A stretch of 64,000 nt of DNA, from the NCBI GenBank assembly GCA_030429545.1, contig JAUIFF010000001.1:403599-467598 (forward strand). Reading direction: 5' to 3'. Numbering within the stretch: position 1 is the stretch's first letter; every line of letters begins with the position of its first letter. This DNA comes from Polyangia bacterium (GTDB taxonomy: Bacteria > Myxococcota_A > Polyangia > Nannocystales > Nannocystaceae). Position numbers and translations under genes: made by a program. Below the pieces are notes generated by a model, which worked only from the letters and a program-made list of their open reading frames with translations, was not told where the DNA came from and did no database searches. Shown here piece by piece: positions 11,252-54,940 of this stretch.

Positions 11252-11536
11252 ATGGTCTCGCTGGCGGCGATCGGCTATCCCATGCCTGTGGCCGACCTTT
11301 TGCTGTGCCAGTGCAACGCGATCTACGAACGTGAAGTGCTCGTATGTATCCGTCGCGGAGCAAGGACGGTCGATGAAGTTGGCGACGAGTGTGACGCCGG
11401 GACCGGCTGCGGAAGTTGTCGTGGTGCGATCAAGACCATGATCGAAGAGGAACAGCAACGAAAGGGCGAGCACTCGTTGCCACCTGAGCTGTTGGCCCTG
11501 CCGTTATTTGCCCGCAACAAGTCTCCAAAAAAGTAG
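11252..11536 (+). CDS. BFD-like [2Fe-2S]-binding domain protein
   Basis: CQCNAIYEREVLVCIRRGARTVDEVGDECDAGTGCGSCRG matches the C-x-C...C-x2-C BFD-like [2Fe-2S] domain; exact start uncertain (ATG 11252 or 11282). Confidence 0.55.
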   Translation: MVSLAAIGYPMPVADLLLCQCNAIYEREVLVCIRRGARTVDEVGDECDAGTGCGSCRGAIKTMIEEEQQRKGEHSLPPELLALPLFARNKSPKK

Positions 11537-11664
11537 GACACAGACCTTGAGAAGGCCGTGCTCGCAGTGACGAGACTCCTGGACGCTGGCGACCGCCAAG
11601 CGCGGCTGACCAGAGTTCGGGGTGGCGACTAGGTTTGCGAGTCCACCTCGAAGCTGTCGCGCGC

Positions 11665-13367: not shown

Positions 13368-13542
13368 TTGGTTCTTGTGCTCGCATTTGGCCAACATCGA
13401 TACCGAAAATCGTTGCCATTGCTCGGATTTGCTCGTCTGATTCGTCAGACGATTGTGTGAGATCGAATACATTGTGAATCGGCAAACAACTCTTGTCATT
13501 AAAGACTTGGTGGTCATGTTTGTCGTGTCGAAAGGAACACAC

Positions 13543-14220
13543 ATGAACTGGAAACTCTACCTCGATACGATTCGTGCCTACCGCTCAGGTGCGAGCCTAG
13601 GCGATGTCGCACTCATGAAGATCGCCGCGTTTCAGACGCCAAACCCCGAGGTTCGAGACCAGCTCAAGGGCCTGCGCGGCTACTACCCAGAGCTCGACCT
13701 GGCGGCGATGCGCGAGCTTCCCAACGGGACGCTCGGGCGCGAATATGTACGGTTTTTGGATGCCCAGGGGATCGAGCCGTTTGTGTTCAGCGACGAGGTC
13801 AAGGCCCGGTTCGCAAACCGCCCGTTCGCCGTCCGCTACACCGTGACCCACGATTTTCACCACGTGCTGGCGGGGTTCGATGCAGGGCTGGCTGGCGAAG
13901 CCGGTGTTGTCGCGTTCACAGTCGGGCAGGGGAGCTTCTCGGGGAAATGGCTCCTGACGTTGCAACGCTGCATCTACGCCGTGTTTTCACCCAGCCAGAT
14001 CCGCGAGGTCAGCAACAACATGAAAGTTGGGTACCGAATGGGTCGCCAAGCCAAGCTGCTACTCGGCGAGCGCCTCGAAGAACAACTGCACCGCCCGCTC
14101 GCCGATGTCCGCAAGGACCTAGGCATTCCCAACCCCAAGGTCGCCGGGGTGCGGGCGAGCAAGGAAAGCTGGATGATGCGGTTGTTTTATCCGAGTGTGA
14201 AACCAGCGGCGATCGCCTAA
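13543..14220 (+). CDS. Coq4-family protein, paralog C
   Basis: TVTHDFHHVLAGFDAGLAGE motif; AAAGGA SD before ATG 13543; about 60% identical to paralog B. Confidence 0.7.
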   Translation: MNWKLYLDTIRAYRSGASLGDVALMKIAAFQTPNPEVRDQLKGLRGYYPELDLAAMRELPNGTLGREYVRFLDAQGIEPFVFSDEVKARFANRPFAVRYTVTHDFHHVLAGFDAGLAGEAGVVAFTVGQGSFSGKWLLTLQRCIYAVFSPSQIREVSNNMKVGYRMGRQAKLLLGERLEEQLHRPLADVRKDLGIPNPKVAGVRASKESWMMRLFYPSVKPAAIA

Positions 14221-14295: not shown

Positions 14296-14850
14296 TCTTA
14301 GCGGGCCGTCACGCGGTGGTGCGATGCCCGTCCATTCGAGCCGGCGCGGCGGTGTAGCGAGAAACTCGAGCACAGTCCGTCTTATCGGGCCTGTACGGTG
14401 TGCGATACCCGTCTTATCGGGTCGGCGCTGCGGTGTAGCAAGACACTCGAGCGCAGTGATGTGGTCTCATTGGGCCGGCGATGGTGCCCGACTTATCGGG
14501 CCGGCGCGGCGGTGTAGCGAGCAACCGAAACTCGAGCGCAGTGATGCCCGTCTCATTGGGCCGGCGGCGATGGCCGTCCTATCGGGCCGACGCGGCGGTG
14601 TAGCGAGCGCAGTGATGTGTGCCCGTCTTATCGGGTCGGTGCGGCGGTGTAGTGAGCAACCGAAACTCGAGCGCAGTGATGTGTTGCCCCGACCGTCTTA
14701 TCGGGTCGGTGCGGCGGTGTAGCGAGCAACCGAAACACGAGCGCAGTGCCCGGCCTGTACGGTGGTGTAGCGAGTAACCGAAACTCGAGCGCAGTGATGG
14801 TCGGCGCGGTGTTGCGAGCTGCGATGTTGTACCCGTCTTATCGGGCGCCG
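14296..14850. repeat. Irregular tandem repeat (~10 units, 30-80 bp spacing) built from a CCCG-TCTTAT-CGGG mini-hairpin module plus a CGGCGGTGTAGCGAGCAACCGAAACTCGAGCGCAGTGATG module
   Basis: Direct inspection: cccgtcttatcggg recurs at 14377, 14408, 14487 (variant), 14547 (variant), 14575, 14622, 14694, 14832; ggcggtgtagcgag recurs at least 7 times; all unit content is conserved (no unique spacers). Confidence 0.8.
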
Positions 14851-14893: not shown

Positions 14894-17800
14894 CTACTTC
14901 TGTGGCTGGGCGGTACCTGGCTGGATGCCTGGCGAAATCGTTGAGCCACGAAACCCGCTGCTGTTACCCGCTGGCGGTTGTGAACCCGACTGCGTGTTTG
15001 AGCTGGAGTTGTTTGGTGTCGAGGTTCCGGACTGTCCGGTTGAGGCGGCGGGAGGTTGTCCGGAAGTGCCGGCCTGTCCGGAAGTGCCGGCCTGTCCCGA
15101 AGTACCGGCCTGTCCCGAAGTACCGGCCTGTCCCGAAGTACCAGGTTGGGTGCTCGTGGGAGGTTGCCCCGTGGGCGTCCCGGTGCTCGGTTGACCCGTG
15201 GACGTCCCGGCGCCAGACTGCGGTGTTTTTCCGGGGATCTTGAGCCCGGGCAGGGGCCGCGACGGTCCGGGGGCATTGGGCTGGACTGTGGGTTTGGGCG
15301 CACCATTTTTGGGACGCAGCTCCGGGGCCTTCTCGGCCTCTTTGGCCTTGACCTTGGCCTTGACCTTGCGGCCCTTGTAGCGGCGCTTCATCACCGGTTT
15401 AGGTTTGAGCTTGATCCGCCCGCCAAACAGGGAGAAGTAGCGGACGCCGTTTTCGTTGCCGCCACCGATTGCGCCAAACAGTGCCCGCCAGTGCAGGCCG
15501 TCGTTGCCGTCCTCGCCCACGCGGCTCCACCACGCGAGGCCCGGACCGACCACATTGGTCGCCTTGTCGCCGTTTTTGTGGCGCACAAACAGGGCCGGAA
15601 TAATCTGGGTCTCGCGGTTTTCACGGCGGAAGTCCCACCACAGCGGGAACCCGACGGTGCGGTTTTTATCGCCGCGTTCGATGTGCCAAACCAGCGGGAA
15701 CTGGACGAAGTCGAGGTTTTCACCCTTGCGTCGTTGCACATACAACGCCGGGAAAATCGAGGTCCAGGCCGTGTCCTTGGCCTTGTGGTTGTCGCGCAGG
15801 TACAGCGGCAACAGCCAGTGTAGGCGGCGCTCGGCATAACTGTGGCTATGCACAAAGATCGGCGGGATGATGGCGGTGGTGACCTTGTGCGGCTTGCGGA
15901 AGTTCCAAACCAGCAGCGCCGCCTGGAACCACCGGGCCTCCTCTTTGCGCTGGCTGATAAATAGCGGGGGGAGCACGACGTTGGTGCTGCGGTCCTCGAC
16001 CCGATGCCGCTTGCGGTAAAACAGCGGGAACACCAGCGTCTCGCGGTATTTTTTGGTGACTGTGTGGCCAAAAAAGCCGGCGTACCAGGTCAGGCGCTCC
16101 TTGGGCTGGTAGTTGTAGCCGCCGAGCCAGGTGTAGAGCTTGCGCCCGCCCTTGCCGTTGCGATCGGCGTAGTACAGGCCGAGGGCGCTGTGGGTGCGAC
16201 GACCCTGGCCGTCCTTGCCGTACATAAACAGCGGGAACGAACCCCAAAGCGTGTACCTGCAACTCGGGTCGTCCTCTTTGCGGAAGTTACATTTTTGGTA
16301 GCGGAACAGCAGCGGAACAACCCCGGTAAACCGGTAGTTTTTGCGCAGCCTGAAGATGTCGAAGTAAAGCGGCGGCGCAATGCTCATGCGCGTGAAGTTG
16401 TGCAGCCGCTTGACGCTAAACACGAACGGGAGGGCGACCCAGGTGCGCGAACCGTTGGCGCGTTGGCGGTCAAACCAGATCGGCAGGGCCAGGGTGTAGT
16501 GCTCTTTCGACCGCTTTTTCTCGTTGTGGATAATCAGCGGCAGGGCGATAAGCCGCCGGTTTTCGACCGAGTCCTTCCACCAATAAAGCGGCGCGACCCC
16601 GGTGTTGAGTTGGGTACGGCTGAGGCGGTGAAAAAACGGCCCGGCGATGAGCGTGTGGGTGCGCCGGTGTTTGTTGCGGCTGTAAAAAAACGGCAGCCCG
16701 GCATCGACATCGACCCCGCCGGGTTGGCGCTGGCGGAAGTAAAACGGGACCACCGCAAAGTTGCGGCGTGGGTGCTCGCCGTCGACCCGACTGCGCCAGA
16801 TAAGTGGCGTGATCATGTCGAGGTCGTCGCCCGGTGTCCGCCGGCGGATATAAAGCGGTGGGACCACGGTGTGCGTCGCCATCCCGCCCTCGGTTGGCCG
16901 TTTGTCGTGGAACAACAGCGGGGCGACACCAAACCCCTTACGCCCGTCGGCACCCTGTTGCCCATACACCGGCCCGGCGACCCAGGTACGTCCCTTGTCC
17001 GACTTGAGACCGCCGCCTAGGGGGGTGAGGGTCAACACCCGCGACTGCCCGTCGACCGTACGCTGGCGCCGGTAGTACAGCGGGAACAGCATGCTGTCGC
17101 GGGAGTCCTTGCGTTTGACATCCCAGGCGATCAGCCCCGCGCCGAGGGTGCGGTGGTCGGGGCCCTTGGAGCGGACAAACAGCGGTGAGATTGTGGTCGA
17201 CTTGTTGGCTTTGACGTCGGTGACGTGCCCGGTCAACAGCGGCAGCACAAGTGCGTAGCGGTGGTTTTCGTCGCGTCCGCTGACAAACACCGGGGGCAGG
17301 CCCGCGTGCCACCCGGTCGGTTTTCGTTGCAGGTACAACGGCGGGATCGCAAACGTATGCTTCTTGGCCTTTTTGTCGTGGACGTGCCAAAACAGCGGGG
17401 TGATGACCTGGTAGGCACGCTCGTCGTTGCGCCCGGTAAACGTCAACAGTGCAGGTACACCAAACCGCCGCTGGTTGGGGTCGCGGGTGCGGTACAAAAG
17501 CGGCGGGGCAACCAACGTGTCGCGTTTTTTGTCGCGGTTGTTGAAGTGCCAAAACAGCGGGGTGACGACCTGGTACGAAAGTCCGGTTTTGCGTTGGCGG
17601 ACAAACGTGAGGGCCGGGAGGACCGAAAACCCAAACCCGTCCTTAGCCCGGGTACCGCCGGCGATCGGGGTAAACACCCGCATCGAGTCGGGCGTTTTGC
17701 GGGTGAACACCAGGGGAAACAGGACATTGCTGGTGACCTGTTTACGGCGGTCGGAAAACCGCCAAAAGATCGGTGCAAATACAGCATTTTGCTGGCGTGG

Positions 17801-19190
17801 ATCGCTGTGGAGCACCAGCGGCCCGGCGACCGTGGTTTTGCTGCCTTCGAGGCGGTTGCGGGCGTGCCAGACAAGCGGCGTGGCCGACCAAAGGTCGCGG
17901 TCGCGGTTGCTCGACTTAAACGTGAGCAGCGGCGGGATGGCCCAGGCTGAGCCCTTGCGGGCCTTGTCGCTGCGCTTGATAAATAACGGCGTCCACAGCT
18001 CGCGGCGATTGCCAAACTCGTTGGATTGCCAGTGAAAAAACGGGAACAGCGTGTGGTGCTTGAGCCCCTTGACCTTGTCGTAGCCGCCGACATACAGCGG
18101 AATACCGACATCGGTCTTGGTGAGGCCCTTGACCCGGCGCACGAAAAACGGTGCAGCTACAAGATATTTACGGTCGCTGAGCGGGTTGCCGTCTTTGAGG
18201 TCCTTGTTGCCGTACCACACCAATACGCCAGACATCGCCCGCAGGCTGTCGGGGGTTTTTTGGTGGTAGTGAAACGGGCCGACAACCAGGTTTTTGACGT
18301 GGCGGTTACCCCAGGCCCACACCAGCGGAAACTGGCCAAAGGTGTATTGCTCGCCAACCCGCTTGTAGCCCATCAGCAGGGGGATCGAGCCCCAGGCCGA
18401 GGTCCGCTCGCTAAACGAACCCATAAACAGGGCGAGCGGGGCGATGTAGCGGCGCTTTTTCTTGGCCTTGCTGTACCAGCCAAACGTCAGGGAGAGGTCG
18501 GCGTGGAACAGTTTCTCCGGGTGCTCTTTGGTGCCCTTGCGATGGATAAAAAGCGGCGGGAGGGTGAGCGCCCGGGTGCGGTGGGTGTTGTATTCCATGT
18601 CCACCCAAAACGGGGGGACGTTGCGCTTTTTGAGCAGCTCCGGGCGGACGTACTCGGGCTCGGGCGTGGTGCCGTCGGGGATCGGCAGGATGTCGTCGGG
18701 GTCCGTTGGCGAACCCATTGTAGATGCATCTTCATCCTCGTCGGGCTCGGTCTCGCGGGGGACGGCGATCGGTTGGGCCGAGGGCACCGGAATGGTCGGG
18801 CTGGGGCCAGTTGCGGGAATCGGTGTCGCCTCGCTCGGAGGTGCCGGATCGCTGCTCGGGACCGTGCCTGCGCCAGCACGCTCGGGTGCACTGGCATCGG
18901 CCCCGGTGCCGGCATTGGGCCCAGGCTCGCTACCTGAGGCGGTGGGAACTTCGGCGCCGGCAGGTGTTGTGCCGGGTGCATAGAGGTTGGCCCAGGTGTC
19001 GACCGGGCCGTGGTGGGCCAACAGTGACGTACCAAAGTAGTCGGGAGTGGCCGCGAGCGAGGTATCGACCTCGACCGCAAACGCGTGGGCTGTGGCGCTC
19101 CAAAGTGCGAGGCTCACCACCGCGACGAGCGGCAGTGGGCGGCGAGCAAAACTGGGAAGGGAGCGTCTCAGGAGCGTGGATTCCCGGAGT
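14894..19190 (-). CDS. Very large secreted repeat protein (~1,430 aa): ~50 tandem ~19-aa repeats with conserved P-[LIF]-[FLYW] core, C-terminal G/T/S/Q-rich low-complexity tail
   Basis: Track ORF 14894..19519; signal-peptide-like [21 protein letters not shown]|FAVEV near 19100-19190, so the true start is probably an alternative codon near 19190 (uncertain). Repeats such as [19 protein letters not shown] / [19 protein letters not shown]; C-terminus [24 protein letters not shown]. Confidence 0.7.
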
Positions 19191-19460
19191 GCGCACCCGG
19201 GATGGAGGAGGAAGTTGCAGCTGCGATGACCGGAAGTCTTGTGCGCGTCGACACCGATTGCTCGGGAGCGTCCACGGGCCGGTGGGAGATAGCGGACGGG
19301 GGTTTGCAGTGTCAACTGTCGAGATGCCTGGAGTTTTTCGGAATAGACCCGCGACCGGAGTTGTTTTTGTCGGCCTGCGCGAGATGCAAGAAGACACACA
19401 CACAGGTGATTGCTCCTGCGTGATTGACACCTCACAGCCACAGCGCTAAAGCCGTGCATT

Positions 19461-20102
19461 GTGGTTGCAGGATCGAAGCGAACCGAATTGGCTCCGGTCG
19501 ACACGTTGCGAGTCGACATCCCCGCACTGATTGGGCGAGGTCCCGGTCCCTATGAAGTAGATGTCGAGGTTGCCCCGGCGTGGGTGAAACAGGCGTTGGC
19601 GGGTACCGATGCCGAGGTCCAACAACTCGCCCAGCTGCGCGGAGAACTCAGCCTCCAGGGCAAGACAGCCCTGTTTCGCGGCCATTTTACCGCGGTCTTT
19701 GAGGTCCCCTGTGCCCGGTGTTTGGAGGGGGCGGCGGTCGATGGAGGCGGCGAGTTGTGTGTCCACTTTGAGCGCGGCGAGAGCAAGCGCCCAAAACTCG
19801 AAGAGGATGACGAAGAAGAGATCGACACCGGCTCACCCGAGCAATTCACGTTCGACGGGATCACACTCGATCTACGACCCATGCTCGTCGAGCACCTGGT
19901 GATGGCCTACCCGATGCGCGCGTTGTGTGAGCGCGGTGAGGATTGTCGGGGGTTGTGTTCGCAGTGTGGCGCCAACCTCAATTCCCAGGGGGAAGGGGGC
20001 CCGTGCTCAGCCTGTGCCGGGCAACAGGCGGCCCAACCTCCCGAGCCCGCGGGCAATGCCAGTTGGCAAGCTGCCCTGCGCAAGATCCGAGACAAGAGCT
20101 GA
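19461..20102 (+). CDS. yceD: YceD/DUF177 family protein (23S rRNA accumulation protein) preceding rpmF
   Basis: CARCLEG...CSQC / CSAC Cys pairs typical of DUF177; conserved position upstream of rpmF-plsX. Confidence 0.8.
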   Translation: MVAGSKRTELAPVDTLRVDIPALIGRGPGPYEVDVEVAPAWVKQALAGTDAEVQQLAQLRGELSLQGKTALFRGHFTAVFEVPCARCLEGAAVDGGGELCVHFERGESKRPKLEEDDEEEIDTGSPEQFTFDGITLDLRPMLVEHLVMAYPMRALCERGEDCRGLCSQCGANLNSQGEGGPCSACAGQQAAQPPEPAGNASWQAALRKIRDKS

Positions 20103-23469: not shown

Positions 23470-24714
23470 ATGTCATCTCGAAGAGTTGTCGTCACGGGCC
23501 TCGGTCTGGTCACCCCACTCGGGGTCGGCACGGACGCAACCTGGAAGAGCCTCCAAGCAGGTTCCTCCGGGATCGGTCCAATCACCCAATTTGATGCCAC
23601 CGACTTTCCGGCCAAAATCGCCGGAGAGGTCGGTGACTTTTATCCGTCTCCGTGGCTGGGTAAACGCGAGCTCCGGCAGATGGACCGGTTTATCCAGTTT
23701 GGGGTCGCCGCCGCGGCAATGGCCTGCGAGGAGGCCGGGATCGTCGAAGGTAGTGTCGAGGCCGAGCGCTTTGGCGTCTACGTCGGTGCCGGTATGGGTG
23801 GCCTTTCGATGATCGAAAAAACGGTCCTCGATATCGAGACCAAGGGGCCGCGACGGGCCGTGAGTCCGTATTTTGTCCCGGCGATCATCATCAACCTGGC
23901 CCCCGGTCAAATTGCGATTCGCCACAACTGTAAGGGGCCAAATCTCTCGCATGTCTCGGCGTGTTCGACAGGTGCCCACTCGGTCGGCGAGGCGTTTCGC
24001 GTGATCGCCCGCGGGGATGCCGATGTCATGATCGCCGGTGGCACCGAATCGGTTGTCAACAAGGCGGCGATCGGTGGGTTTTGTGCGGCACGTGCCCTGT
24101 CCAATCGCAACGACGAGCCGACCAAGGCATCTCGCCCGTTCGACCGCGACCGCGATGGTTTTGTGTTGAGCGAGGGGGCGGGGCTGTTGGTACTCGAAGA
24201 GCTCGAGCACGCCCGCGCCCGCGGTGCCACGATCTTGGCCGAGGTCGCCGGCTACGGGCTCAACTGCGATGCCCACCACATGACCTCGCCCTCCGTCGGT
24301 GGAGAAGGTGCGAGCCGGTGTATGCGACTGGCCCTGGCGGATGCCGGGGTGGCCCCCGAGGCGGTCGGCTATCTCAACGCCCACGGCACCTCGACGGTTG
24401 CAGATACAATCGAAACCCTGGCCATCAAAAATGTGTTTGGCAAGCACGCCCACAACGGGTTGGCAGTGTCGTCGACCAAGTCGATGCATGGGCACCTATT
24501 GGGCGCCGCCGGCGGGCTCGAAGCCGCGATCGCAGTGCTTGCCCTGCATCACGCAGTGTTGCCGCCCACCATCAATCTCGACAATCCCGACGAGGGTTGC
24601 GACCTCGACTACGTGCCCCACACCGCACGCAGCCAACAGGTTGAATATGCAATGTCCAACAGCTTCGGGTTTGGTGGCACCAACGCAACCCTGCTGTTTC
24701 GGAGCGCACCATGA
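23470..24714 (+). CDS. fabF: 3-oxoacyl-ACP synthase II
   Basis: [15 protein letters not shown]; active-site Cys in SACSTGAHS; C-terminal [11 protein letters not shown] / [11 protein letters not shown] His-His motifs; 414 aa. Confidence 0.95.
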
Positions 24715-25145
24715 GCCGATGGATCGTCGGCAGCGACCACGGTGGCGTCGAGCTACGCTCCTTGGTCGCCGACGACCTGCGGGCGCTCGGCCACGAGGTC
24801 GAGGTCATCGGCCCGGCACCAGGAGCCGGCTCAGTCGACTATCCCGATGTCGCCAAACAGGTGTGTGCCGATGTCCTCGACAACGCCGGGAGCTTTGGCG
24901 TGCTGGTGTGTGGCACCGGGCAGGGCATGGCGATCAGCGCCAACAAGGTGCCTGGGATCCGCGCAGCCGTGGTCAGCGATGTGTTTAGCGCCCGGATGGC
25001 GCGGGCCCACAACAACGCCAATGTCCTGTGCCTGGGCCAACGTGTCCTCGGGACCGAGCTCGCTCGCGAATTGCTCAAGGTGTTTGTCGCCAGCGAGTTT
25101 GAGGGCGGACGCCACGCCCGGCGGGTCGGAAAAATCGAGGGCTAA
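24711..25145 (+). CDS. rpiB: Ribose-5-phosphate isomerase B (RpiB/LacAB family)
   Basis: [12 protein letters not shown]...[22 protein letters not shown]; 144 aa. Confidence 0.85.
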
Positions 25146-25322
25146 ACCGCAGTCGCTCGCGTGGTCGCGGCGGGTCGATAAAATCGAGGGCGAAAGCCCT
25201 GCAAAGGTTCGCCGACCGACACGCGCTGTCGCTCGCTTGATCGCAGACGTATGAGCCGTCGTAGATCACGCACCCGTGGTACAACTTCGCAACGGCCCAA
25301 GGGCCGTCTCAGGACCCTCGCC

Positions 25323-28948: not shown

Positions 28949-30234
28949 GTCGACCCGCGCGGGTGTTGCTTGTCGTTGCGGGCGGGATTGCGGCCTACAA
29001 GGCGCCGTTTGTCGTCCGCGCACTCAAGGGTGCAGGCCTCGACGTCCGCGTGGTGACAACCCCAGCTGCCCAGGCGTTTGTCACCGAGCTGTCGCTGTCG
29101 AGTGTCTCGGGTTACCCGGTGCGCAGCCAGTTGTTAGACGCCTCGGCCGAGGGGCAAATCGGCCACATCGAACTCGCCGATTGGCCCGACCTGGTACTCG
29201 TTGCACCTGCAACAGCTGACCTGATTGCCCGGGCGGCCCACGGGCGGGCGAACGACCTTGCCAGTTGTGTGTTGTTGGCCACCCGCGCCCCGGTCTTGTG
29301 GGCGCCGGCGATGAACACCAACATGTGGGAGCACCCGGCGACCCAGCAAAACCTGGCGACCCTGCGAACGCGCGGCGCAGCGTTTGTCGGGCCAGATGCC
29401 GGGGAGCTCGCCTGTGGTTGGGTCGGCAAGGGGCGGATGATCGACCCACCGATCATCGTCGCCGCCGCCCAGCGAATACTTGCACAGGCAACAAACCATC
29501 CACTCGCCGGCAAGCGTGTTTTGGTCTCCGCCGGACCAACCCGGACCTACCTCGACCCGGTGCGGTTTTTGTCGAACGCATCGACCGGGGTGATGGGCTT
29601 TGCCCTCGCCGAAGCTGCGGCCCGAGCTGGGGCCGAAGTGACGCTCGTCGCCGGTCCGGTGGCGTTGGCAACTCCCCACGGTGTTTCGCGGGTCGATGTC
29701 GAAACCGCGGCCGAGATGCTCACCGCGATGCAAACTCATCTCGGGCAGCAGACAACCGACTTGGCAACCGATTTGGCAACCGACTTGGTCGCCATGGTCG
29801 CGGCCGTCGGTGACCTCGAGGTGGCCAATCCCTCGCAGGCAAAACACACCAAGGCCGAGCTGGTCGAAGCCATGGGGCGGGCGAGCTGGCAACGGGCCCC
29901 CGATGTGGTCGCCACACTTGCGAGCGAGCACCGCCCGCGGACCAAGTTTTTAGCCTTTGCCGCCCAAACCGTTGGCCCCGAGTGCGAGGATGTCGACGCC
30001 GAACTGATCGCCCTTGGGACTGCCAAAATGCAGCGTAAGGGGGTCGACGCGTTATTTGTCAATCGCGTGGGTGTGCCCGGGCTCGGGTTTGCCAGCCACA
30101 CCAACGCCGGCCACCTGTTGATCGCCCGCGAGTCGATGCAGGTACATCCATCCGGGGAGCCGCGGCCCAAGCCCGAGCTCGCCACCTGGATGCTCGACAA
30201 GCTCTCCGCCGGGTTGTGGGGAGCCGATGCCTGA
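28945..30234 (+). CDS. coaBC: Bifunctional phosphopantothenoylcysteine decarboxylase / phosphopantothenate-cysteine ligase
   Basis: N-terminal flavoprotein domain (VAGGIAAYK) and C-terminal CoaB domain; 429 aa. Confidence 0.9.
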   Translation: MSRPARVLLVVAGGIAAYKAPFVVRALKGAGLDVRVVTTPAAQAFVTELSLSSVSGYPVRSQLLDASAEGQIGHIELADWPDLVLVAPATADLIARAAHGRANDLASCVLLATRAPVLWAPAMNTNMWEHPATQQNLATLRTRGAAFVGPDAGELACGWVGKGRMIDPPIIVAAAQRILAQATNHPLAGKRVLVSAGPTRTYLDPVRFLSNASTGVMGFALAEAAARAGAEVTLVAGPVALATPHGVSRVDVETAAEMLTAMQTHLGQQTTDLATDLATDLVAMVAAVGDLEVANPSQAKHTKAELVEAMGRASWQRAPDVVATLASEHRPRTKFLAFAAQTVGPECEDVDAELIALGTAKMQRKGVDALFVNRVGVPGLGFASHTNAGHLLIARESMQVHPSGEPRPKPELATWMLDKLSAGLWGADA

Positions 30235-31723
30235 GCAGCGTGGCCCTGAGCAGCTGCACGATGCCGCCAGTTTGGCACGCAGCCTGGCCAATCACCTGCG
30301 TCACCTGCAGGAGTTCCACGGGCTTGCCTATGTGTCAGGTGCGGCGATGCCCCGGGTTGGGTTGCCAGCAGGCGCGGCGTCAGAACGTGTGCATCAGCAA
30401 GTTGTTGGCCAAGCTCCAGTTACCACGCCAGCTACTACGCCAGTTGCCAAGCCAGTTGCCAAGCCAGTCGCCAAGCCAGTTACCAAGCCAGTTGCCACGC
30501 GCAGCAAGTCACCAGCCGGCGCGATGCCACAAAGCGTGCATCAGCAAGTGGTTGGCCAAGCTCCAGCCGCTACAGCAACCGCTCCACGCAGCAAGTCGCC
30601 CGCAGGCAGCCATCCTGCGCAGCCGGTTGCCACAACCAGTTTTGCGGCGGACAAACCAGCCGGAGCCGATCCTGTCGCCACCACTTCACGCAGGCGAGCG
30701 GGGGACAAGCGAGCCGAGGTCGACGCGATGGCCCGCCAGCAACACGCTGCGCAGGGAAGCGAGTCGTCGCACGGGCCAGCACAGGGCGGTAAGGTCCCCG
30801 GGAAACATGTGGATACAAGTAATTCCGGGCCCGTGGAGCCTAGGGCTGAGCCACGGCGCTCGGCAGGCGGTCGACAACCTGTCCCTTCAGACCGTCGAGC
30901 TAACGAAATGCCCGGGCGGCAACAATCCCCCCAGCAAGGGCAACAGGCGCAACGCCGTGGACTGCGTGTGGTCGATGGGCAAGGCAAGCCTGCAAAACCT
31001 CCCGAACAGCGAGCCGCTGCGTCGGGCAAGAAAAACGATCCGCGGGGAGGGGCTCCAGCTCCCCAAAAACCCTCGGCCGACGAGGCCCGCAAGTGGCCGC
31101 CAGCACGCAAACTGGAGTACCTGCGCTACCACATCGGCGATTGCCAACGCTGCCGCCTCGCCGGCACGCGCACCACAATCGTGTTTGGCAGCGGCAACCC
31201 CGAGGCCCAGGTCATGTTTGTTGGCGAAGCCCCGGGGGCCGACGAGGATCGCCAGGGGATTCCGTTTGTCGGTGCCGCCGGGCAACGCCTCAACCGGATG
31301 CTGCGTGAGCTCGAGCTAGAGCGTCACCACGTGTATATCGCCAACGTGCTCAAGTGCCGTCCGCCGCGAAACCGCGACCCGCGGCCCGACGAAGTCAATG
31401 TATGTTCAAAGTTTTTGGAGGCCCAAATCCGGGCGATCCAACCCCGGGTTTTGATCGCGCTTGGCCGCCACGCCGGGATGTTGATGTTGCGCAAGTCGGA
31501 GATGACGTTACGCGAGATGCGAGCGGGCAAATGGATCTACGAGCAGCCAGCAGCGCAATTGAAAATCCCTCTTTTTATCACATATCACCCGTCCTATGTG
31601 CTGCGCCGCGAGTCTGATGCGCGACGTCAAGGGGGAAATGCCAACGAGGCACACAGCCTGGTGGTAGACGATCTTCGTAAAGCTTTGAGTGTGATCCGCG
31701 CAAGTTCCAACGCGAATCGGTGA
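30227..31723 (+). CDS. Family 4 uracil-DNA glycosylase ([4Fe-4S]) with ~300-aa low-complexity N-terminal extension
   Basis: C-terminal [52 protein letters not shown] matches the family-4 UDG signature. N-terminal region has [19 protein letters not shown] repeats; start overlaps coaBC stop, so the true start is uncertain. Confidence 0.75.
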
Positions 31724-32528: not shown

Positions 32529-35255
32529 GTGGCCGCGATGACGGGCCCCAGACAGCATGGCTGGCTCTACGCCGCGATCGCCAAATTCTCGATCCGGCGG
32601 TGGCTATGGGTGATGGCCGGCCTTTTGGCGGTTGTGATCGTCGCCGGACTCGCGGTCCCACAAATTGGGATCACGACCAATCGGTTTGGCATGGTCAGCT
32701 CCGATAATCCCAGCCAGGCCACGCTCGAGGCCTATTTTGAGCGGTTTGGCTACCCGGATCTTCCCGTGGTGGTGGTCCGCGGGGCGGATGCCGAAACCCG
32801 GCAGCAGGTTGTCGACGAGCTGCAGGTTGCCTACGAGGCCATGCCGATCCTCGAGGGTCGGGTGCTTGCCCGGCTCGGGCCCGAGGCGATCGCAGAGTTC
32901 TTGTTTGTACAAGATCCCCACGTCATCGCCGAGCTGCGCGACATGGTTGGCTCGACCGACAAACCACTTCCCGAGCTCATTGAAGGCGGGTTGCCAGCAC
33001 TGATGGATGTGGTTGGCAATCGCCTGCAGGCGGGGCTCGACGGCAACGATGCCGGGCCGGCCCAAACCGAAGCGCAACAAACCGAGGGATTTCGCCAGCT
33101 CGGCAACATCGCCGAGGCCCTGTCACGCAACCTCCAAGACCAGGAAATCGACGAACAACTGCGGGCTTTGTCGGGTATGGACACGGTGCCCGAACGCCGG
33201 GGGATCGACGACCGCGGCTACTTTGTCGGCTGGAAAGGCGAGCATCACCTCGTCGCCCTGTTCCCGGTGTTTGCCAGCGGTGAGGTCGACGACATAGCTC
33301 CGGTGATCAACGAGATTCGGGCGACTTCAAGCGAGGTGCAGCAGCGGTTTGCCGACCAAGGTGTCGAGGTCATGGTCACCGGGCTGCCGGTGTTTTCGAC
33401 CGACGAGATGGCGCTTATCCGCCGCGGGATTTTGGTCAGCAGCGTCCTCACTGGCCTGGCGATCTTCTTGCTGCAGCTGTACGCGTTTCGTTCGTTGCGA
33501 ATGGCGATCTACGTGCAGTTGCCACTGGGGATCGGCCTGGTGTTGACCCTGGGCGCGGTGTGGCTGCTGTACGGCTATCTCACCATCGTGACCTCGAGCT
33601 TTATCGCCATCTTGCTGGGCCTTGGGATCGACTTCTCGATCCACATCCTCGCCCGGGCCAACGAGTTTCGCCGCGAGGGGCTGGAGGCCGGGCCGAGCAT
33701 GGTCGCGGCGATGCAGTCGGCGGGGCCGGGGGTGGTGATCGGGGCCCTGACCACGGTCATCGCGTTCTTGGCCACCATGACAACCGAGTTCACCGCGTTC
33801 GCCGAACTCGGGGTGATCACCTCGATCGGCCTGATCACGATGATGGTGGTGGCGTTGTTTGTGATGCCTGCGCTCGCCGGGCAGGGGTGGGGTGGCAATC
33901 GGTTCTACGAGGCCAAGATCCACGGGGTGTCGCAGTTACCGAGGTTTGTCCGCGCTGCCCCCAAAGTGCTGGTCGGGTTTGGCTTGGTGGCTGCGATCGC
34001 GGGTGCGGTGGCGTTCCCATCGGTCAAGTTCAACGCCCGCTACTTCGACTTCTTGCCCGATGAGTCACCGGCTGCAATCGCCCTCGACCTACTCGAAGAA
34101 GACGGGGCCATGAGCCCGGCGTTTGCCTGTTTTCAGGCGCCCAACTTCGAGGCCGCCCGCGAGAAGGCCGAGCAACTGCGCAAGCTCGACCTGATCGCCG
34201 ATGTCCAAACGCCGACAGATCTCGCACCCAAGTTGACGCCAGACCTGTTGTCGGAGTTGCGTGCCGGGTTTGCTGGCCTACCGCGTCAGCCCGACTTTGA
34301 GCGCCTGGCCAATGCCCCGGTGTCGGCGACTGACATTGCGACCAAGGTGACACGGATCGTCGACCTGTTTGACGAGGTTCGGTTTGAGCTCAAACGCAAC
34401 GACCGCGATACAGCGGCCGTCGATGCCGCGATCAAACAGTTTCGCCAACTCGCCGAGGTGCTGCGTGGCCTGCCTGAAGACGGTCAACCCCGGCTGCGAA
34501 AGATGCATCAGCAAATTTCGCGGATCATGGGACGGGCCTGGACGACCGGGCGGGCGATCGCCGAACGTGGAGAATATGCACCCGAAGACATGCCTGAGCT
34601 GTTCAAAGTGCGGTTTATGGCGGTCGATGGGTCTGGCGCAGTGGCGTTGTTCGCCACCCCCAACATCAATATTTGGGAACTGGAGAACGCCGAGCGGTTC
34701 CACCGGCAGCTCGAGACCGTCGACCCTGATGCGACCGGCTTTGCGGTGACCCTCCACGAGCACCACTCGATGATCTTTCACGGGTTTGGCCGGGCCGTTG
34801 TGGTTGCGGCGATCCTCGTGTTTTTGGTGGTCTTGGCCCAATTCCGCAATCTCAAAGACTCACTGTTGGTCATGTTCCCAGTCGCGTTGGGCTGGTCGTG
34901 GATGATCGGGACGATGGCGCTGTTCAGCATACCGCTCAACGTCGTCAATATTGTTGTATTGCCACTTGTTGTTGGGATCGGTATCGATGCCGCTGTGCAC
35001 GTGATGCACCGTGCACGCCAGTCGGCCGAGACCCATGGCAAGGCCCGACTTTCAGACCTGCTCGAAGGAACAGGAGCTGCTGTCTTGCTATCCTCGCTGA
35101 CGACGATTTTTGCCTTCGCCGGGCTTATCGTCGGGGCCGAGTATGGTGGGATGTTGAGCCTGGGCCTGGCGATGATGATCGGGGTTGGCAGCTGTCTATT
35201 TGCCTGTGTGGTGGTGCTGCCTGCTCTGCTCGTGTGGCTCGGGCGAGCCGAGTAG
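32529..35255 (+). CDS. MMPL/RND-superfamily transporter (12 TM, two periplasmic loops)
   Basis: 908 aa; two SSD/MMPL transmembrane blocks (GLGIDFSIHIL..., GIGIDAAVHVMH...). Confidence 0.8.
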   Translation: MAAMTGPRQHGWLYAAIAKFSIRRWLWVMAGLLAVVIVAGLAVPQIGITTNRFGMVSSDNPSQATLEAYFERFGYPDLPVVVVRGADAETRQQVVDELQVAYEAMPILEGRVLARLGPEAIAEFLFVQDPHVIAELRDMVGSTDKPLPELIEGGLPALMDVVGNRLQAGLDGNDAGPAQTEAQQTEGFRQLGNIAEALSRNLQDQEIDEQLRALSGMDTVPERRGIDDRGYFVGWKGEHHLVALFPVFASGEVDDIAPVINEIRATSSEVQQRFADQGVEVMVTGLPVFSTDEMALIRRGILVSSVLTGLAIFLLQLYAFRSLRMAIYVQLPLGIGLVLTLGAVWLLYGYLTIVTSSFIAILLGLGIDFSIHILARANEFRREGLEAGPSMVAAMQSAGPGVVIGALTTVIAFLATMTTEFTAFAELGVITSIGLITMMVVALFVMPALAGQGWGGNRFYEAKIHGVSQLPRFVRAAPKVLVGFGLVAAIAGAVAFPSVKFNARYFDFLPDESPAAIALDLLEEDGAMSPAFACFQAPNFEAAREKAEQLRKLDLIADVQTPTDLAPKLTPDLLSELRAGFAGLPRQPDFERLANAPVSATDIATKVTRIVDLFDEVRFELKRNDRDTAAVDAAIKQFRQLAEVLRGLPEDGQPRLRKMHQQISRIMGRAWTTGRAIAERGEYAPEDMPELFKVRFMAVDGSGAVALFATPNINIWELENAERFHRQLETVDPDATGFAVTLHEHHSMIFHGFGRAVVVAAILVFLVVLAQFRNLKDSLLVMFPVALGWSWMIGTMALFSIPLNVVNIVVLPLVVGIGIDAAVHVMHRARQSAETHGKARLSDLLEGTGAAVLLSSLTTIFAFAGLIVGAEYGGMLSLGLAMMIGVGSCLFACVVVLPALLVWLGRAE

Positions 35256-35430
35256 GGGGGGCACCTTCAGGCAACCAAAACAAGAGCAGCTGGACAAATC
35301 CTGCTGCCTGGGTTGAGTTGTCGCTGAAGACGAAGTTGTGCCTGTGTCGTGGCTCGGGCGAGCCGAGTAGGGTGCACAACTTTAGGCAACCAACACAAAG
35401 GCAGCTGGACGGATCCAGCTGCCTTGGCTT
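35232..35430 (+). repeat. Tandem duplication (2 units, ~113 bp period) of the MMPL gene 3' end plus its downstream hairpin
   Basis: gtggctcgggcgagccgagtaggg...caaccaa.acaa.gcagctggac..atcc.gctgcc occurs at 35232-35314 and again at 35345-35430; second copy has perfect GCAGCTGG-acggat-CCAGCTGC hairpin. Confidence 0.6.
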
Positions 35431-35451
35431 GGTTGTGAGGTCGATGGTGGC

Positions 35452-50800: not shown

Positions 50801-51026
50801 GTACATATAAAGTGCGAGGCAAAATCGGACCTGCGGGCAGTTAGCCCGTGGGTTCGTTTGCGTTTACGCGTGGGAGCGACCGTGGCGAGTCCAGGCGACC
50901 TGCCACTTCGCGAGGTTGCTCACCGGCAGGAATCGGACAGTTATTCGCCGTTCATAAACTCGGTGCCAGCCTCAGGTAGCCGATTTTTGTGCTCTCTCGG
51001 AGGGGCAAGCCGAGATTGGGGGGAGA

Positions 51027-52376
51027 ATGTCGGCAGCCAAGACCTACAATCGTGGCATGTCAACGTTGCCCCCAGGTCCTCGCTCAATGCTGCTCACGAC
51101 GATTCGCGTCGCGCGGACGCCGATCGAGGCGATGACCAAGTACCGCGCTCGCTACGGAGATCCGTTCTTCTTACCGATGGGAAACGGCCCGATCGTCGCC
51201 ACCGCCCAGCCCGCGCTGATCAAGGAGCTGTTCGCTAACCGTGATACCTCGCTGTACGGATCGTTCGGCTTTGAGTCGACCCGCGCTCTCGTCGGAGACC
51301 ACTCGGTACTGATGATGGACGGCGTCGAGCACAAACGCGAGCGCAAGCTGCTCAACCCGCATTTCCGTGGTGAGCGTATGCGGGCGTACGGCGAGGTCAT
51401 GATTGAGGCCACGCGCGAAGCATTCGCTACGCTCTCGGTCGGTGAGGAATTCGTCGCCATCGAGCGCACCACCGAGCTCTCGCTCGAGGCGATCGTGCGA
51501 GCGGTGTTCGGCTTCTCCACGCGGGAGGAAATCACTGTGGTCCAGCGGGCCGTGATGGCGACGCTCCGCGCAGCCAAGCCCTACCTCCTTTTCAGCCCCA
51601 AGACCCAGATAGCCCCCTTCGGCCTCGGACCGTGGGCGACCTTCCAGAAGCACTCTAAGGCGCTCGACGATCTGCTCTACGCACACATCGAGAAGACCCG
51701 CGCCTCTCCCGATGGCCGTGAGGACATCCTCGCAATGCTCGTCGGGGCCCGCTACGACGACGGCAGTGCCATGTCCGACAACGACATCCGGGACGAGCTA
51801 CGCACCCTCCTGATCGCCGGCCACGAAACGACCGCGGTTAGCCTCGCCTGGACTCTCTACGCGCTCCACCGTCATCCAGAGGTGCTCGCGCGAGCTCGGG
51901 CCGAGGTCGATGAGCTCGGCGAGAATCCAGCCCCAGAGACGCTCGCGCGCTTGTCGTACCTCGGTGCGGTGATCGACGAGACACTCCGCCGCTACCCGGT
52001 CGTCGACGTGGCCTTTCGCAAACTCCTCCGTCCGGTGAGTTTCGCCGGCTACGAGCTCCCCGCCGGCGTCACCGTGTGCCCAGCGATCGTCCTGGTTCAC
52101 CAGGACCCAACGATTTACCCCGACCCCGCGCGCTTCGATCCCGAGCGTTTCCTGGGCAAGAAGCCCCGCCCGCACGAGTACCTGCCCTTTGGCGGCGGCA
52201 ACCGCCGCTGCATCGGTGCGGCGTTCAGCCTCTACGAGTCACGCCTCGCGCTCGCAACTCTACTGCGGGAGTTCGAGCTCGAACTCCTCGACACCGACGA
52301 GCTCCCCCCGGTACGGAAGAACATCGTGCTCGCGCCAAAGGGGGGCGTGCGAATGCGCCTGCGAGCACGTCGCTGA
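51027..52376 (+). CDS. Cytochrome P450
   Basis: FGGGNRRCIGAAF heme-thiolate loop; AGHETT I-helix; ETLRRYP K-helix ExxR. Confidence 0.9.
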   Translation: MSAAKTYNRGMSTLPPGPRSMLLTTIRVARTPIEAMTKYRARYGDPFFLPMGNGPIVATAQPALIKELFANRDTSLYGSFGFESTRALVGDHSVLMMDGVEHKRERKLLNPHFRGERMRAYGEVMIEATREAFATLSVGEEFVAIERTTELSLEAIVRAVFGFSTREEITVVQRAVMATLRAAKPYLLFSPKTQIAPFGLGPWATFQKHSKALDDLLYAHIEKTRASPDGREDILAMLVGARYDDGSAMSDNDIRDELRTLLIAGHETTAVSLAWTLYALHRHPEVLARARAEVDELGENPAPETLARLSYLGAVIDETLRRYPVVDVAFRKLLRPVSFAGYELPAGVTVCPAIVLVHQDPTIYPDPARFDPERFLGKKPRPHEYLPFGGGNRRCIGAAFSLYESRLALATLLREFELELLDTDELPPVRKNIVLAPKGGVRMRLRARR

Positions 52377-52424
52377 CCTTGCCATCACAAGGTTGTTTAG
52401 AGCCGGATCCGGCAGTCGCCCACG

Positions 52425-53262
52425 ACAGCTGCGACTCACGAAACCCAACTTCGACAAACTCGGATCGAGACGACACGCGAGAAAACCACGGGGTGCTAGG
52501 GAGGTGCCGAGCTCTTCCATGATTCCGCCGACCCGCTCCTGGTCGCAAAATCCAGCTGGACTCGCGAAACCCAACTTCGACAAACTCCCCGGCTCGAGAC
52601 GACACGCGAGAAAACCACGTGGTGCTAGGGAGGTGCCGAGCTCTTCCATGATTCCGCCGACCCGCTCCTGGTCGCAAAATCCAGCTGGACTTGCGAAACC
52701 CAACTTCGACAAACTCCCCGGCTCGAGACGACACGCGAGAAAACCACGTGGTGCTAGCGAGGCGCCGAGCTCTTCCATGATTCCGCCGACCCGCTCCTGG
52801 TCGCGAAATCCAGCTGGACTCACGAAACCCAACTTCGACAAACTCCCCGGCTCGAGACGACACGCGAGAAAAACACTTCGGCGCGAGGCGGCGCGAGAAA
52901 ACCACGGGGTGCTAGGGGAGAGGGTGCCGAGCTCATCCATCTGCGACTCACGAAACCCAACTTCGACACACTCTTCGGCGCGAGGCGACGCGAGAAAACC
53001 ACGGTGTGCTAGGGGAGAGGGTGCCGAGCTCATTCATCTGCGACTCACGAAACCCAACTTCGACACACTCTTCGGCGCGAGGCGACGCGAGAAAACCACG
53101 GTGTGCTTGGGCTCTTCCATGATTCCGCGGACCCGCTCCTGGTCGCACAATCCAGCTGCGACCTCACGAAACCCAACTTCGACAAACTCCCCGGCGAGAC
53201 GCCACGCGGCTGCTAAGGAGAGGCGCCGAGCTCTTCCATGATTCCGCGGACCCGCTCCTGGT
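52425..53262. repeat. Tandem array (7 units, ~99-128 bp) each reproducing the last ~45 nt of the downstream minus-strand gene plus stop codon plus ~75 nt of 3' flank
   Basis: cgaaacccaacttcgaca recurs at 52438, 52566, 52694, 52822, 52948, 53047, 53166. Each unit carries gagctcttccatgattccgccgacccgctcctggtcgc, the reverse complement of the DQERV(G/R)GIMEELG C-terminal coding sequence, and a cgacgcgagaaaaccacgg motif. Confidence 0.85.
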
Positions 53263-54940
53263 CGCGCAATCGTGCCGGAACCAGTTCGAGGTAGCGCCGG
53301 TAGTGCTCGAGGGCCGCCTCGGGATTGTTGAGCTCGCGCTCGATGTCGCCGAGCAGACGATGCAAACTCCCGATCTCGGGGGCGAGTGTCAGGGCGACCT
53401 GGGCGGCCGTGCGCGCGCGCTCGGGCAGCTGTTGGCCGAGCAGGTCCTTTGCATAGGCAATTGCATGGAGTGCCTGCTCGTAGTCGTTGTAGGCCTCGCT
53501 GTGAAGTAGGCGGTCGGGGGGGATATCGTCGAGTGGGGCAGGGCGATCGCCCTGGCGCATCAGCCAGTAGCGCAGGTCGAACGCGCGAAACTTGCCGAGG
53601 GCCGAGGGCCCCTCGGAGACCCACAGCACCATCGCCGTTGCATCTACAAGTATGGCGTGGCTGCGGGCGAGGTTGTCGAGCGCGTTGGGGTTGCCGAGGC
53701 CGAGGGGATGGCCCTCCTTGCCCTGGCGGTCACGCAAAATAGCGACGGCGCGCTCGGGCGTGACTGTCTCTTGGGTCAGTAGCTCACCGAGCCGTTCGTA
53801 GCGATACCCCGAGGAGGTCGAGCGCCGAAGTCGATCGTTTTCGGCATCCCGTTCAAACGCACCCTCGATCAGGTGGTTGGTGCTCCACACGGTCGAGTCT
53901 TTTTCGCCGCGAACCTTGCGGTTGTCGTCCTTGGCCCGGGGCGCCATTTCGACAATCGCCGACTTACGGGCCATGCCGTCGGCCACCAACACCACCGCCG
54001 AGGTCCGGACATCGGCACCGCTGAGCAGTTCGGTCGCGGCTTCGAGGGTATCGGCTTCTTCGAGTACACGCCGCAGTAACAGCGACACCGGAAGGCCTTC
54101 TTCGCCGGGGTCGTCGGTGCGCGTGGTGTTGAGGGCAACGAAGATCCCGCGCGAGTTCATGCCCGTGACCACGCCCGTCATGCCGGGCCAGCCGATCGAG
54201 ACAAACGGGTATTTGCCGTCGGGGTAGTAAAACGCCACGACCCGGTCGCCTTCGAGCGGACCAAACCCCTCGCCGAGATCGACCGAAAGGCTGCGGCCGA
54301 CGATCAGGTTGCCCGGGGTTTCAGCGCCACGGCCGGCCTTGGCGAGGCTGGCAAACATGTTGCCCTCGATCACGACATCGTCGAGGGTTTCGGACAGCTC
54401 CTGAAAACATTGGTACAGCAACAACCGCTGGTAGCCGGAGAAGTTCGGGCCCGAGGCCTCGGGCAAGCCTTCGGCAAAGGCCGCCAACTCTTCGCGCTCG
54501 TTGGGCGCGAGTGCTTCGTCGACGTCGCGGTAGCGCCAACGCACCATCGACAGGGCCGACCAGGACTCAAAACCTCCGGGGTAACGTTGGCTGACGAGGT
54601 CTTGGATACGGTCGTCGAGCCGGTGAAACAGCTGCCCGCCGAGTGCCCCGTGTGCCCAACCTATCTGGGCTGGCGACCCCTCGAGGTGGAGGTGCCAAAT
54701 CCCGCGCTCGCGGGCGAGCCAGGCGTTGCCGGCCGAGAGCTTGCGCCCGGTGGTGTCGACTTCGATTTCGAGGCGCTCGACCTCGACTTCGGGTGGATTG
54801 ACCTCGGTGTATTCGAGGTAAGCCGAGTAGGCGATGGTGCCGATGATGCCAACGAGGACCAAAAGCACAGCTACCGCCCGCGCGATCGCAAAAAATCCCG
54901 GACCTTCGCCAGGTGTCTGTGGAGGTGCAAATCGCGCCAT
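53213..54940 (-). CDS. Membrane-anchored peptidase C45 / acyl-CoA:6-APA acyltransferase-family protein with C-terminal TPR region
   Basis: N-terminal TM FFAIARAVAVLLVLVGIIG; FVSIGWPGMTGVVTGMNSRGIFVALN resembles C45/NTN-hydrolase core; C-terminal TPR-like helices; start chosen at M 54940. Confidence 0.6.
   Translation of the reverse strand: MARFAPPQTPGEGPGFFAIARAVAVLLVLVGIIGTIAYSAYLEYTEVNPPEVEVERLEIEVDTTGRKLSAGNAWLARERGIWHLHLEGSPAQIGWAHGALGGQLFHRLDDRIQDLVSQRYPGGFESWSALSMVRWRYRDVDEALAPNEREELAAFAEGLPEASGPNFSGYQRLLLYQCFQELSETLDDVVIEGNMFASLAKAGRGAETPGNLIVGRSLSVDLGEGFGPLEGDRVVAFYYPDGKYPFVSIGWPGMTGVVTGMNSRGIFVALNTTRTDDPGEEGLPVSLLLRRVLEEADTLEAATELLSGADVRTSAVVLVADGMARKSAIVEMAPRAKDDNRKVRGEKDSTVWSTNHLIEGAFERDAENDRLRRSTSSGYRYERLGELLTQETVTPERAVAILRDRQGKEGHPLGLGNPNALDNLARSHAILVDATAMVLWVSEGPSALGKFRAFDLRYWLMRQGDRPAPLDDIPPDRLLHSEAYNDYEQALHAIAYAKDLLGQQLPERARTAAQVALTLAPEIGSLHRLLGDIERELNNPEAALEHYRRYLELVPARLRDQERVRGIMEELGASP

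Follow-up and report, generated by a model that had tools for sequence, protein, structure and literature searches.

The 64-kb stretch of DNA analysed here (the window) belongs to a marine-type myxobacterium of the family Nannocystaceae (Myxococcota). It carries a gene for a protein with C45 (acyl-CoA:6-APA acyltransferase-like) and TPR domains, hereafter C45/TPR, which converges with a cytochrome P450 gene. The two genes are separated by a spacer of 836 nt (~0.84 kb), and this spacer consists almost entirely of a tandem array made of copies of the C45/TPR gene end. The C45/TPR product is identical to a database protein of 575 aa (P0001), and its named homologues belong to Nannocystaceae, Enhygromyxa or Myxococcales.

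A tandem array of gene ends in the P450-C45 spacer

The C45/TPR gene terminates in RDQERVRGIMEELGASP, followed by TAG at 53213. Downstream of the gene we found six further head-to-tail repeats of its tail (~48 nt), each continued by the stop codon and a flank of ~65-80 nt. An 18-mer anchor taken from the unit, TGTCGAAGTTGGGTTTCG in gene sense, has seven exact occurrences, all of them in the array, while 0.06 would be expected by chance in the window. Tandem Repeats Finder divides the region in two, with a period of 129 at 52426-52876 (3.5 copies, 95% matches, score 809) and a period of 97 at 52876-53111 (2.4 copies, 97% matches). Exact anchors and detected periods thus establish as real the seven-unit array that a preliminary description of this DNA had placed at 52425-53262. 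The periods given in that description (128, 128, 128, 126, 99 and 119) were slightly off: the spacings measured along the plus strand are 126, 129, 129, 128, 97 and 119 nt, which read from start to start in gene sense as 119, 97, 128, 129, 129 and 126 nt. Together with 49 unique nucleotides (52377-52425), the array makes up the whole P450-C45 gap, as had been proposed.

Units were numbered U0 to U6 in gene sense, and their boundaries were drawn by unit dissection and alignment (Table 1). Two types of flank can be distinguished. Type A is found in U0 and in U4-U6, and type B in U1-U3, U3 being a B/A hybrid that contains an internal re-duplication of ~31 nt and forms the junction between two sub-arrays. 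The distal units are near-identical (96-98% between U4 and U5), and the proximal ones are more degraded. U1 retains 12 tail codons and is identical to the gene over 36 nt. In U4-U6 the copy lacks 2 nt, which puts the TAG out of frame. U6 carries the full tail with an Arg-to-Gly change, and its flank runs on into the unique distal sequence. A tail of ~15 codons plus TAG had been assigned to every unit; the full tail does exist in U4-U6, but U1-U3 are truncated. An inverted repeat CTCGCG...CGCGAG, also described as a unit feature, is weak and missing from some units. Nested and partly homogenised units of this kind are a pattern typical of a minisatellite after several rounds of duplication, decay and re-amplification.

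Table 1. Features of the C45/TPR locus and other duplicated gene tails, in window positions
Feature	Position	Strand	Description
C45 (acyl-CoA:6-APA acyltransferase-like) + TPR gene	53213..54940	-	575 aa; open reading frame (ORF), Pfam AAT/TPR hits
Source of the repeated coding piece	53213-53262	-	last ~48 nt of the C45/TPR gene
U0 flank	53149..53212	-	genuine 3' flank right after TAG; shortened type A; contains TGTCGAAGTTGGGTTTCG
U1	53030..53148	-	119 nt; tail codons CDQERVRGIMEE same as gene; ELG..stop deleted; type-B flank
U2	52933..53029	-	97 nt; ~9 tail codons + TAG remain; type-B flank
U3	52805..52932	-	128 nt; ~9 tail codons + TAG; type-B + type-A hybrid flank
U4 and U5	52547..52804	-	129 nt each; full 15-codon tail (R to G); type-A flank
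U6	52426..52546	-	last copy, ~121 nt to unique distal sequence; anchor-to-anchor spacing 126; type-A flank
Unique distal spacer	52377..52425	.	short hairpins GTCGC..GCGAC, GCCGGATCCGGC, CCTTG..CAAGG; defined from sequence and fold of the last unit
Cytochrome P450 gene	51027..52376	+	convergent with the C45 gene; Pfam
Accidental read-through ORF	52260-53033	-	257 aa; through U2-U6; 117 nt antisense into the P450 gene
MMPL gene tail duplication	35234..35436	+	last codons, TAG, hairpin-containing flank; one extra copy, period 115; convergent spacer
rpiB tail duplication	25119..25195	+	last 25 nt + TAA of rpiB (24711-25145) recopied 49 nt downstream, 25/28 identical; upstream of nrdR

The repeat unit ends within the loop of the first hairpin of the distal spacer. 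This short unique sequence is probably the original 3' region shared by the convergent P450 and C45 genes, with a putative role as terminator.

The direction of copying could be deduced from the protein. The C-terminal motif RDQERVRG(I/L)(M/L)EELG closes more than 100 C45 homologues, down to 53% identity; hence, the gene is the origin of the coding piece found in the repeats, rather than a repeat having been captured as the gene end. The view that the array arose by serial duplication of the 3' end of the gene and its flank is supported by this conservation. The copies themselves are pseudo-fragments, with deletions, one nonsynonymous change and out-of-frame stops, and the differences among units include C to G and G to A changes as well as indels. 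We also considered that the flank might be an older copy of upstream coding sequence, as is the case in a relative described below (L002). This possibility was discarded, as local alignment of the flank to the upstream coding sequence was no better than that of shuffled sequences (254 of 1000 shuffles aligned equally well or better).

The read-through ORF listed in Table 1 crosses several units because a period of 129 nt amounts to 43 codons. It begins inside a degraded unit, and the source annotation includes a 226-aa hypothetical protein (P0124) called through the array. The ORF has no Pfam hit and, among 5.8 billion proteins, its only match is its own gene call, P0124. A real repeat protein was rejected on these grounds, and P0124 is almost certainly a spurious gene call made by stop-free repeats.

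Recurrence of gene-tail duplications in the window and in relatives

Duplications that span a stop codon are found elsewhere in the window and in relatives, so that the phenomenon is recurrent and not a single chance event, in agreement with the preliminary description. The two-copy duplication reported after the MMPL gene was recovered, with 83% identity over 88 nt between 35234-35321 and 35349-35436. Both MMPL copies form a long hairpin (z = -2.5 and -3.9), the only convincing one among the folds of the array and the MMPL copies. The end of rpiB has been duplicated as well (Table 1); near it, a further short direct repeat, GTCGCTCGC.TG.TCG, is present at 25153 and 25229.

Other repeats of the window have a different make-up. 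In a second large intergenic tandem array, at 14321-14845, a unit of ~50-86 nt, CCCGTCTTATCGGGCCGGCGCGGCGGTGTAGCGAGCAACCGAAACTCGAGCGCAGTGATG, is present in at least 7 copies, with a small CCCG..CGGG hairpin in each. This array occupies the spacer where a Coq4-like gene (13453-14220, +) converges with the gene for a 1541-aa repeat protein (14894-19519, -), is unrelated to either adjacent gene end, and has no Rfam match. Two in-frame coding repeats were also seen: an 18-nt unit repeated 4.8 times at 15057-15142, which encodes (GQAGTS)n near the C-terminus of the 1541-aa protein, and a 12-nt unit repeated 6.8 times at 30416-30497, inside ORF 30216-31319, where it is flanked by a 55-nt repeat whose copies are 147 nt apart.

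Relatives were then compared at the orthologous locus. Loci L002 and L017 encode a C45 protein 80% identical to that of the window. L002 harbors several copies of its own C45 gene end, with flank and boundaries that differ from those of the window's array; the C45 tail duplication in L002 is thus independent of the window's array, at the orthologous gene. In the same two loci, the glutaredoxin-domain gene next to C45 shows its last ~60 nt, stop codon included, recopied ~100 nt downstream (L002:500-670 and L017:1806-1965). Another member of the glutaredoxin gene family (L031:477-534) ends in a 14-nt unit repeated four times with TAG in each. In L041, a 24-nt exact repeat flanks a terminator-like hairpin; the repeat begins right after the stop codon and does not include it.

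A cleaner example of triplication of a gene end together with its terminator was observed in L048, a distant Nannocystaceae contig. There, at 5425-5650, a 79-nt unit is present three times in tandem with 98% identity, and comprises the end of a 538-aa gene: its last codons, its TGA and its terminator-like hairpin, which is GC-rich. At L045:6100-6950 (and also at L046:8294-8826), a diverged (72%) copy of the C-terminal thioredoxin domain lies downstream of a DsbD-thioredoxin gene. The copy in L045 keeps a WCLPCKE motif, and ORF 5053-6945 runs through a Pro/Thr-rich stretch into it; this may be 3'-end duplication on a larger scale, and one that is possibly functional.

Two relatives, L001 (85% identity) and L016 (at least 90% identity with the L002 protein), have no array downstream of C45. 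No downstream tail copy was found at any of 50 orthologous C45 loci with 50-69% identity, and the C45 tail was accordingly rejected as a general hotspot. The P450 gene is missing from this position in L001, L002 and L016, the three relatives for which the downstream flank was recovered. The whole stretch between C45 and pdxJ is in fact variable: it contains GNAT, P450 and the array in the window (50801-53212), GGACT and GNAT in L001 (3355-3793), only repeats in L002 (3203-3602) and only 43 nt in L016 (2330-2372). L001 has an intergenic tandem array of its own at 11320-11560, with ~52-nt units that are 90% identical; as it occupies a divergent promoter spacer, arrays in the clade are not limited to 3' spacers.

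To estimate how common such repeats are, regions with direct repeats of at least 24 nt, at least 80% identity, a distance of at most 1.5 kb and E < 1e-5 were counted by self-BLAST. The indicative figures obtained were 6 regions in the 64 kb of the window (9.4 per 100 kb), 4 in 33 kb from four close relatives (12.1 per 100 kb), 23 in 455 kb from 50 distant Nannocystaceae loci (5.1 per 100 kb) and none in 169 kb from 18 loci of unrelated bacteria (0 per 100 kb). Short tandem duplications appear therefore to be about an order of magnitude commoner in Nannocystaceae than in this small sample of other bacteria. Three of the four non-coding repeat regions of the window lie in convergent spacers, which make up ~12 of 50 spacers. 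Of these four regions, three run across a stop codon, and start codons are not crossed by any. The other three repeat regions of the window are in-frame repeats inside genes.

Structure, dispersal and comparison with known repeats

The preliminary description invoked either a structured 3' element or a mobile terminator-like cassette. Neither proposal is supported. The RNA fold of the whole array is worse than that of shuffled sequences (z = +4.5), single-unit folds are indistinguishable from shuffles (z = -0.08 to +1.4), and a consensus scan of the array found neither promoter nor intrinsic-terminator sequence. Rfam gave nothing at E ≤ 1 in 52300-53350 and nothing at the gathering score across the window. 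A structured RNA, a terminator and a known Rfam RNA family were rejected on the basis of these results.

Dispersal was examined using the anchor and the flank. In 596 Gb of species-representative genomes, among which the source genome is not included, the 18-mer anchor gave 13 single matches in unrelated taxa, a figure consistent with the ~17 matches that chance would give according to a rough estimate of our own, not computed by a tool. A 23-mer had no match in metagenome contigs (a collection from which the source genome is also absent), a scan of viral contigs gave none, the anchor has no other copy in the window, and a second flank motif was not found in 72 fetched loci. The flanks of the different duplicated tails do not share a significant motif either: the best pair, C45 and rpiB, was equalled by 9 of 300 shuffles before correction for six comparisons. 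The flank motif, which the preliminary description proposed to look for in the genome, is thus lacking in the rest of the window and in the 72 loci, and does not exceed chance in the collections.

Inspection of the surroundings points in the same direction. Near the array there is no integrase, transposase or reverse transcriptase, and the neighbours besides P450 are housekeeping genes (GNAT, PdxJ, glutaredoxin, DsbD, aminotransferase, kinase). The array showed no terminal inverted repeats (target-site duplications were not looked for). The only inverted-repeat pair, of 25 nt, 72% complementary and 388 nt apart, links the array to coding sequence instead of marking unit ends. Units abut one another with no cargo between repeats. 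On the evidence of the window, the 72 loci and the collections, which do not contain the source genome, a dispersed or mobile element was rejected, and with it the cassette proposed earlier.

Among known systems, the closest counterpart is the minisatellite or variable number tandem repeat (VNTR) that overlaps a stop codon, as described for instance in Yersinia pestis (PMC3689786). In both cases the repeat is non-coding, sits in a spacer at a single locus and is arranged head to tail; its unit takes in the final codons and the stop, so that the gene remains whole in the first copy, and slippage or unequal recombination is the presumed source. The array differs in that its units are longer (97-129 nt versus mostly 7-45 nt) and strongly heterogeneous, with two sub-families and internal deletions, and in that it is known from one assembly. 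In the features that were tested, namely tandem arrangement at one locus with the functional gene end as first copy, the array is a stop-codon-overlapping intergenic minisatellite.

Mycobacterial interspersed repetitive units (MIRU-VNTR) show some likeness, as they are tandem units of 50-130 nt, intergenic, abutting gene ends and traversed by small ORFs. However, MIRUs are a single sequence family dispersed at many loci; they sit inside operons, in the gaps between co-directional genes, and are coupled to the start codon that follows (PMC12548453), whereas here each locus has a local gene-derived unit in a convergent spacer. Given the lack of dispersal in the window, the 72 loci and the collections, which do not contain the source genome, and the convergent rather than operonic context, a MIRU-type repeat was discarded.

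A near-copy of a gene 3' end just downstream of the gene is also reminiscent of the template and variable repeats of diversity-generating retroelements. This option was rejected as well: reverse transcriptase and accessory genes are absent, the differences between copies (C to G, G to A, indels) are not adenine-specific, and there are multiple decaying copies. The lack of a stable palindrome (z = -0.08 to +1.4), of terminal inverted repeats and of dispersal in the window and the collections argues against repetitive extragenic palindromes (REP), bacterial interspersed mosaic elements (BIME) and miniature inverted-repeat transposable elements (MITE). A clustered regularly interspaced short palindromic repeat (CRISPR) array was rejected since the units are contiguous and wholly homologous, without unique spacers; an attachment-site (att) integration scar, since no integrase or recombinase is found within ~10 kb and the repeats abut without cargo; and an integron, since its defining features are absent.

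Rhs and cdiA toxin genes offer another comparison, as displaced 'orphan' C-terminal cassettes lie downstream of them. Fragments of a gene 3' end accumulate downstream of an intact gene in these systems and in the array. Unlike the orphans, the array has neither variable toxin domains nor immunity genes, and its fragments are 30-175 nt of the tail of a housekeeping-type gene. In L002, the displaced fragment carries an older or foreign allele, as a displacement model would have it.

Origin of the array

We consider it probable that the array is a non-coding minisatellite of the VNTR type, seeded by a tandem duplication of ~130 nt that spanned the C45/TPR stop codon. Short tandem duplications would arise often in Nannocystaceae, owing to either a high rate or a high retention, and those located within genes or across start codons would mostly be purged by selection. 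The founding duplication would simply happen to span the C45/TPR stop. A duplication so placed would leave a dead tail fragment plus flank downstream, and would be harmless because the first copy preserves the gene; such harmlessness would be greatest where convergent genes are separated by a spacer that has no promoter. From two copies onwards, unequal homologous recombination or replication slippage could add and reshuffle units, and point mutations and small deletions would degrade them, yielding type-B units (U1-U3) nested within type-A units (U0, U4-U6). As a result, the 3' untranslated region and the spacer would have grown from ~120 nt to 836 nt, and the array would have no function of its own. 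Slippage or unequal recombination, with no special element involved, is the likely engine of expansion, and the process may well have been neutral.

Each of the steps proposed fits repeat data published for other bacteria. Of 88 VNTRs in Y. pestis, 10 overlap a stop codon, and changes in their copy number were judged to have little effect on the ORF (PMC3689786). Across prokaryotes, tandem repeats are enriched just downstream of stop codons (PMC12418385), and in mutation-accumulation lines of Myxococcus xanthus gains of repeat units outnumbered losses by 21 to 6 (PMC11069108). In our search of the literature, nothing specific was found on intergenic tandem arrays or gene-tail duplication in myxobacteria.

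Several observations weigh against this interpretation and can be summarized as follows:

(i). The founding U0/U1 junction shows only 1-2 nt of clear microhomology, so that classical slippage between direct repeats would be no more than a candidate for the first event. The junction falls in a hairpin loop and would fit a template switch at a stalled fork or an end-joining event; the small hairpin concerned, GTCGC...GCGAC, has been preserved whole at the distal end of the array and nowhere else in it.

(ii). Variation in copy number between strains is the feature that defines a VNTR, and no further assembly of this locus turned up in the collections searched.

(iii). The control set of the repeat survey is small and the gene calls used in it are heuristic, for which reason its enrichment figures are indicative only.

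(iv). Two lineages with ~80% protein identity have independent C45 tail duplications, compared with none of the 50 distant orthologous loci. This pairing suggests that a local hotspot or a lineage-specific process, and not generic neutrality alone, may be at work.

(v). The displaced copies in L002 match a different allele than the resident gene end, a finding not expected from simple intragenomic duplication.

The latter observation underlies the strongest alternative, which is displacement associated with recombination. Recombination would bring in DNA from a diverged strain, with a homologous crossover within the gene on one side and, downstream, a join that is illegitimate or out of register; the incoming gene end would thus be inserted ahead of the resident end, which would persist. 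Later unequal crossing-over would enlarge the array. The L002/L017 pair provides the evidence. Over 3.2 kb the two loci share 99-100% identity, interrupted by mosaic patches of ~90%. One such patch is formed by the last 144 nt of the C45 gene, which differ at 14 sites, all of them third codon positions (synonymous). Displaced copy 2 of L002 is identical to the functional end of L017 (62/62) and less similar to the end of the L002 gene itself (57/62), and the same trend is seen in copy 3 (81/88 versus 75/88). In other words, an exact L017-type end exists as a pseudo-fragment 97 nt downstream of the L002 gene (L002:3058-3330 compared with L017:4358-4513). The simplest reading of these alignments is that in L002 the end of a diverged allele may have recombined in ahead of the resident end, which stayed behind. 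Hence, some tail duplications in the clade may be by-products of imprecise homologous exchange and not of intragenomic slippage. The variability of the C45 3' flank in the clade, with P450 in the window, the GGACT gene in L001 and neither in L002 and L016, would also agree with such exchanges. On the other side, the L017 contig breaks 11 nt after the C45 stop codon, the copies in the window have the resident gene as their nearest counterpart (36 nt of U1 match it fully, and U4-U6 show one nonsynonymous change), and every unit in the window carries the same flank, as plain tandem duplication predicts. Because of the closeness to the resident gene and the common flank, plain tandem duplication was kept as the main explanation, and displacement is regarded as unlikely for the array of the window.

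Another possibility is that a process specific to the Nannocystaceae lineage preferentially re-copies gene 3' ends, in place of generic neutral duplication. Candidates may be out-of-register recombination that imports diverged alleles, for which the L002/L017 pair gives a hint, or template switching at 3'-terminal hairpins. If true, 3'-end re-copying would leave arrays of displaced tails able to exchange sequence with the functional C-terminus by gene conversion. We view a process of this kind as quite unlikely.

A function for the array, either as a repeated RNA or protein-binding module in the 3' untranslated region or as a genuine repeat protein translated from the read-through ORF, is in our opinion very unlikely. 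In its favour, the period of U4-U6 is a multiple of three, a 257-aa ORF crosses the units and a 226-aa product has been annotated. However, the lack of Pfam hits and of homologues other than itself, the start of the ORF in a degraded unit and its 117-nt extension antisense into the P450 gene argue against a protein, and the non-significant folds and the lack of an Rfam match argue against an RNA module. In addition, units are decaying through deletions of different sizes, and the closest relatives have no array.

Assembly errors are known to arise at tandem repeats, and an assembler might have mis-expanded a shorter repeat. We give this explanation equally little credit, as unit-specific substitutions and indels (97, 119, 126, 128 and 129 nt) are not expected from artefactual expansion, the source contig is 1.55 Mb long, and comparable structures are found in independent assemblies of relatives.

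Least credible of all is that a mobile terminator-like cassette, a MITE or copies of an att site at the gene 3' end, with P450 as cargo, gave rise to the array: integrative elements directed at the 3' end of a gene do bring along a surrogate of that end, and the P450 gene is lineage-specific at this site, but the neighbourhood lacks integrase, transposase and reverse transcriptase, nothing is carried between the repeats, terminal inverted repeats were not seen, the flanks of other duplicated tails are unrelated, and the motif is absent from the rest of the window, the 72 loci and the metagenome and viral contigs, with genome matches at the estimated chance level.

As a decaying and apparently functionless minisatellite, the array adds one more case to a known and ordinary kind of feature. 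The frequency of tail duplications across the family and the displacement seen in L002/L017 are of modest side interest, the latter pair being a rare snapshot of a gene end that is replaced while the old end remains. There are also practical consequences: the 226-aa 'protein' P0124 called through the array is a warning for annotation, and repeats of this type break short-read assemblies, as illustrated by the premature end of the L017 contig. In Nannocystaceae, duplications survive mainly in convergent spacers or across stop codons, and such repeats in large myxobacterial genomes are a natural record of both the duplication spectrum and the selection that acts on gene boundaries.

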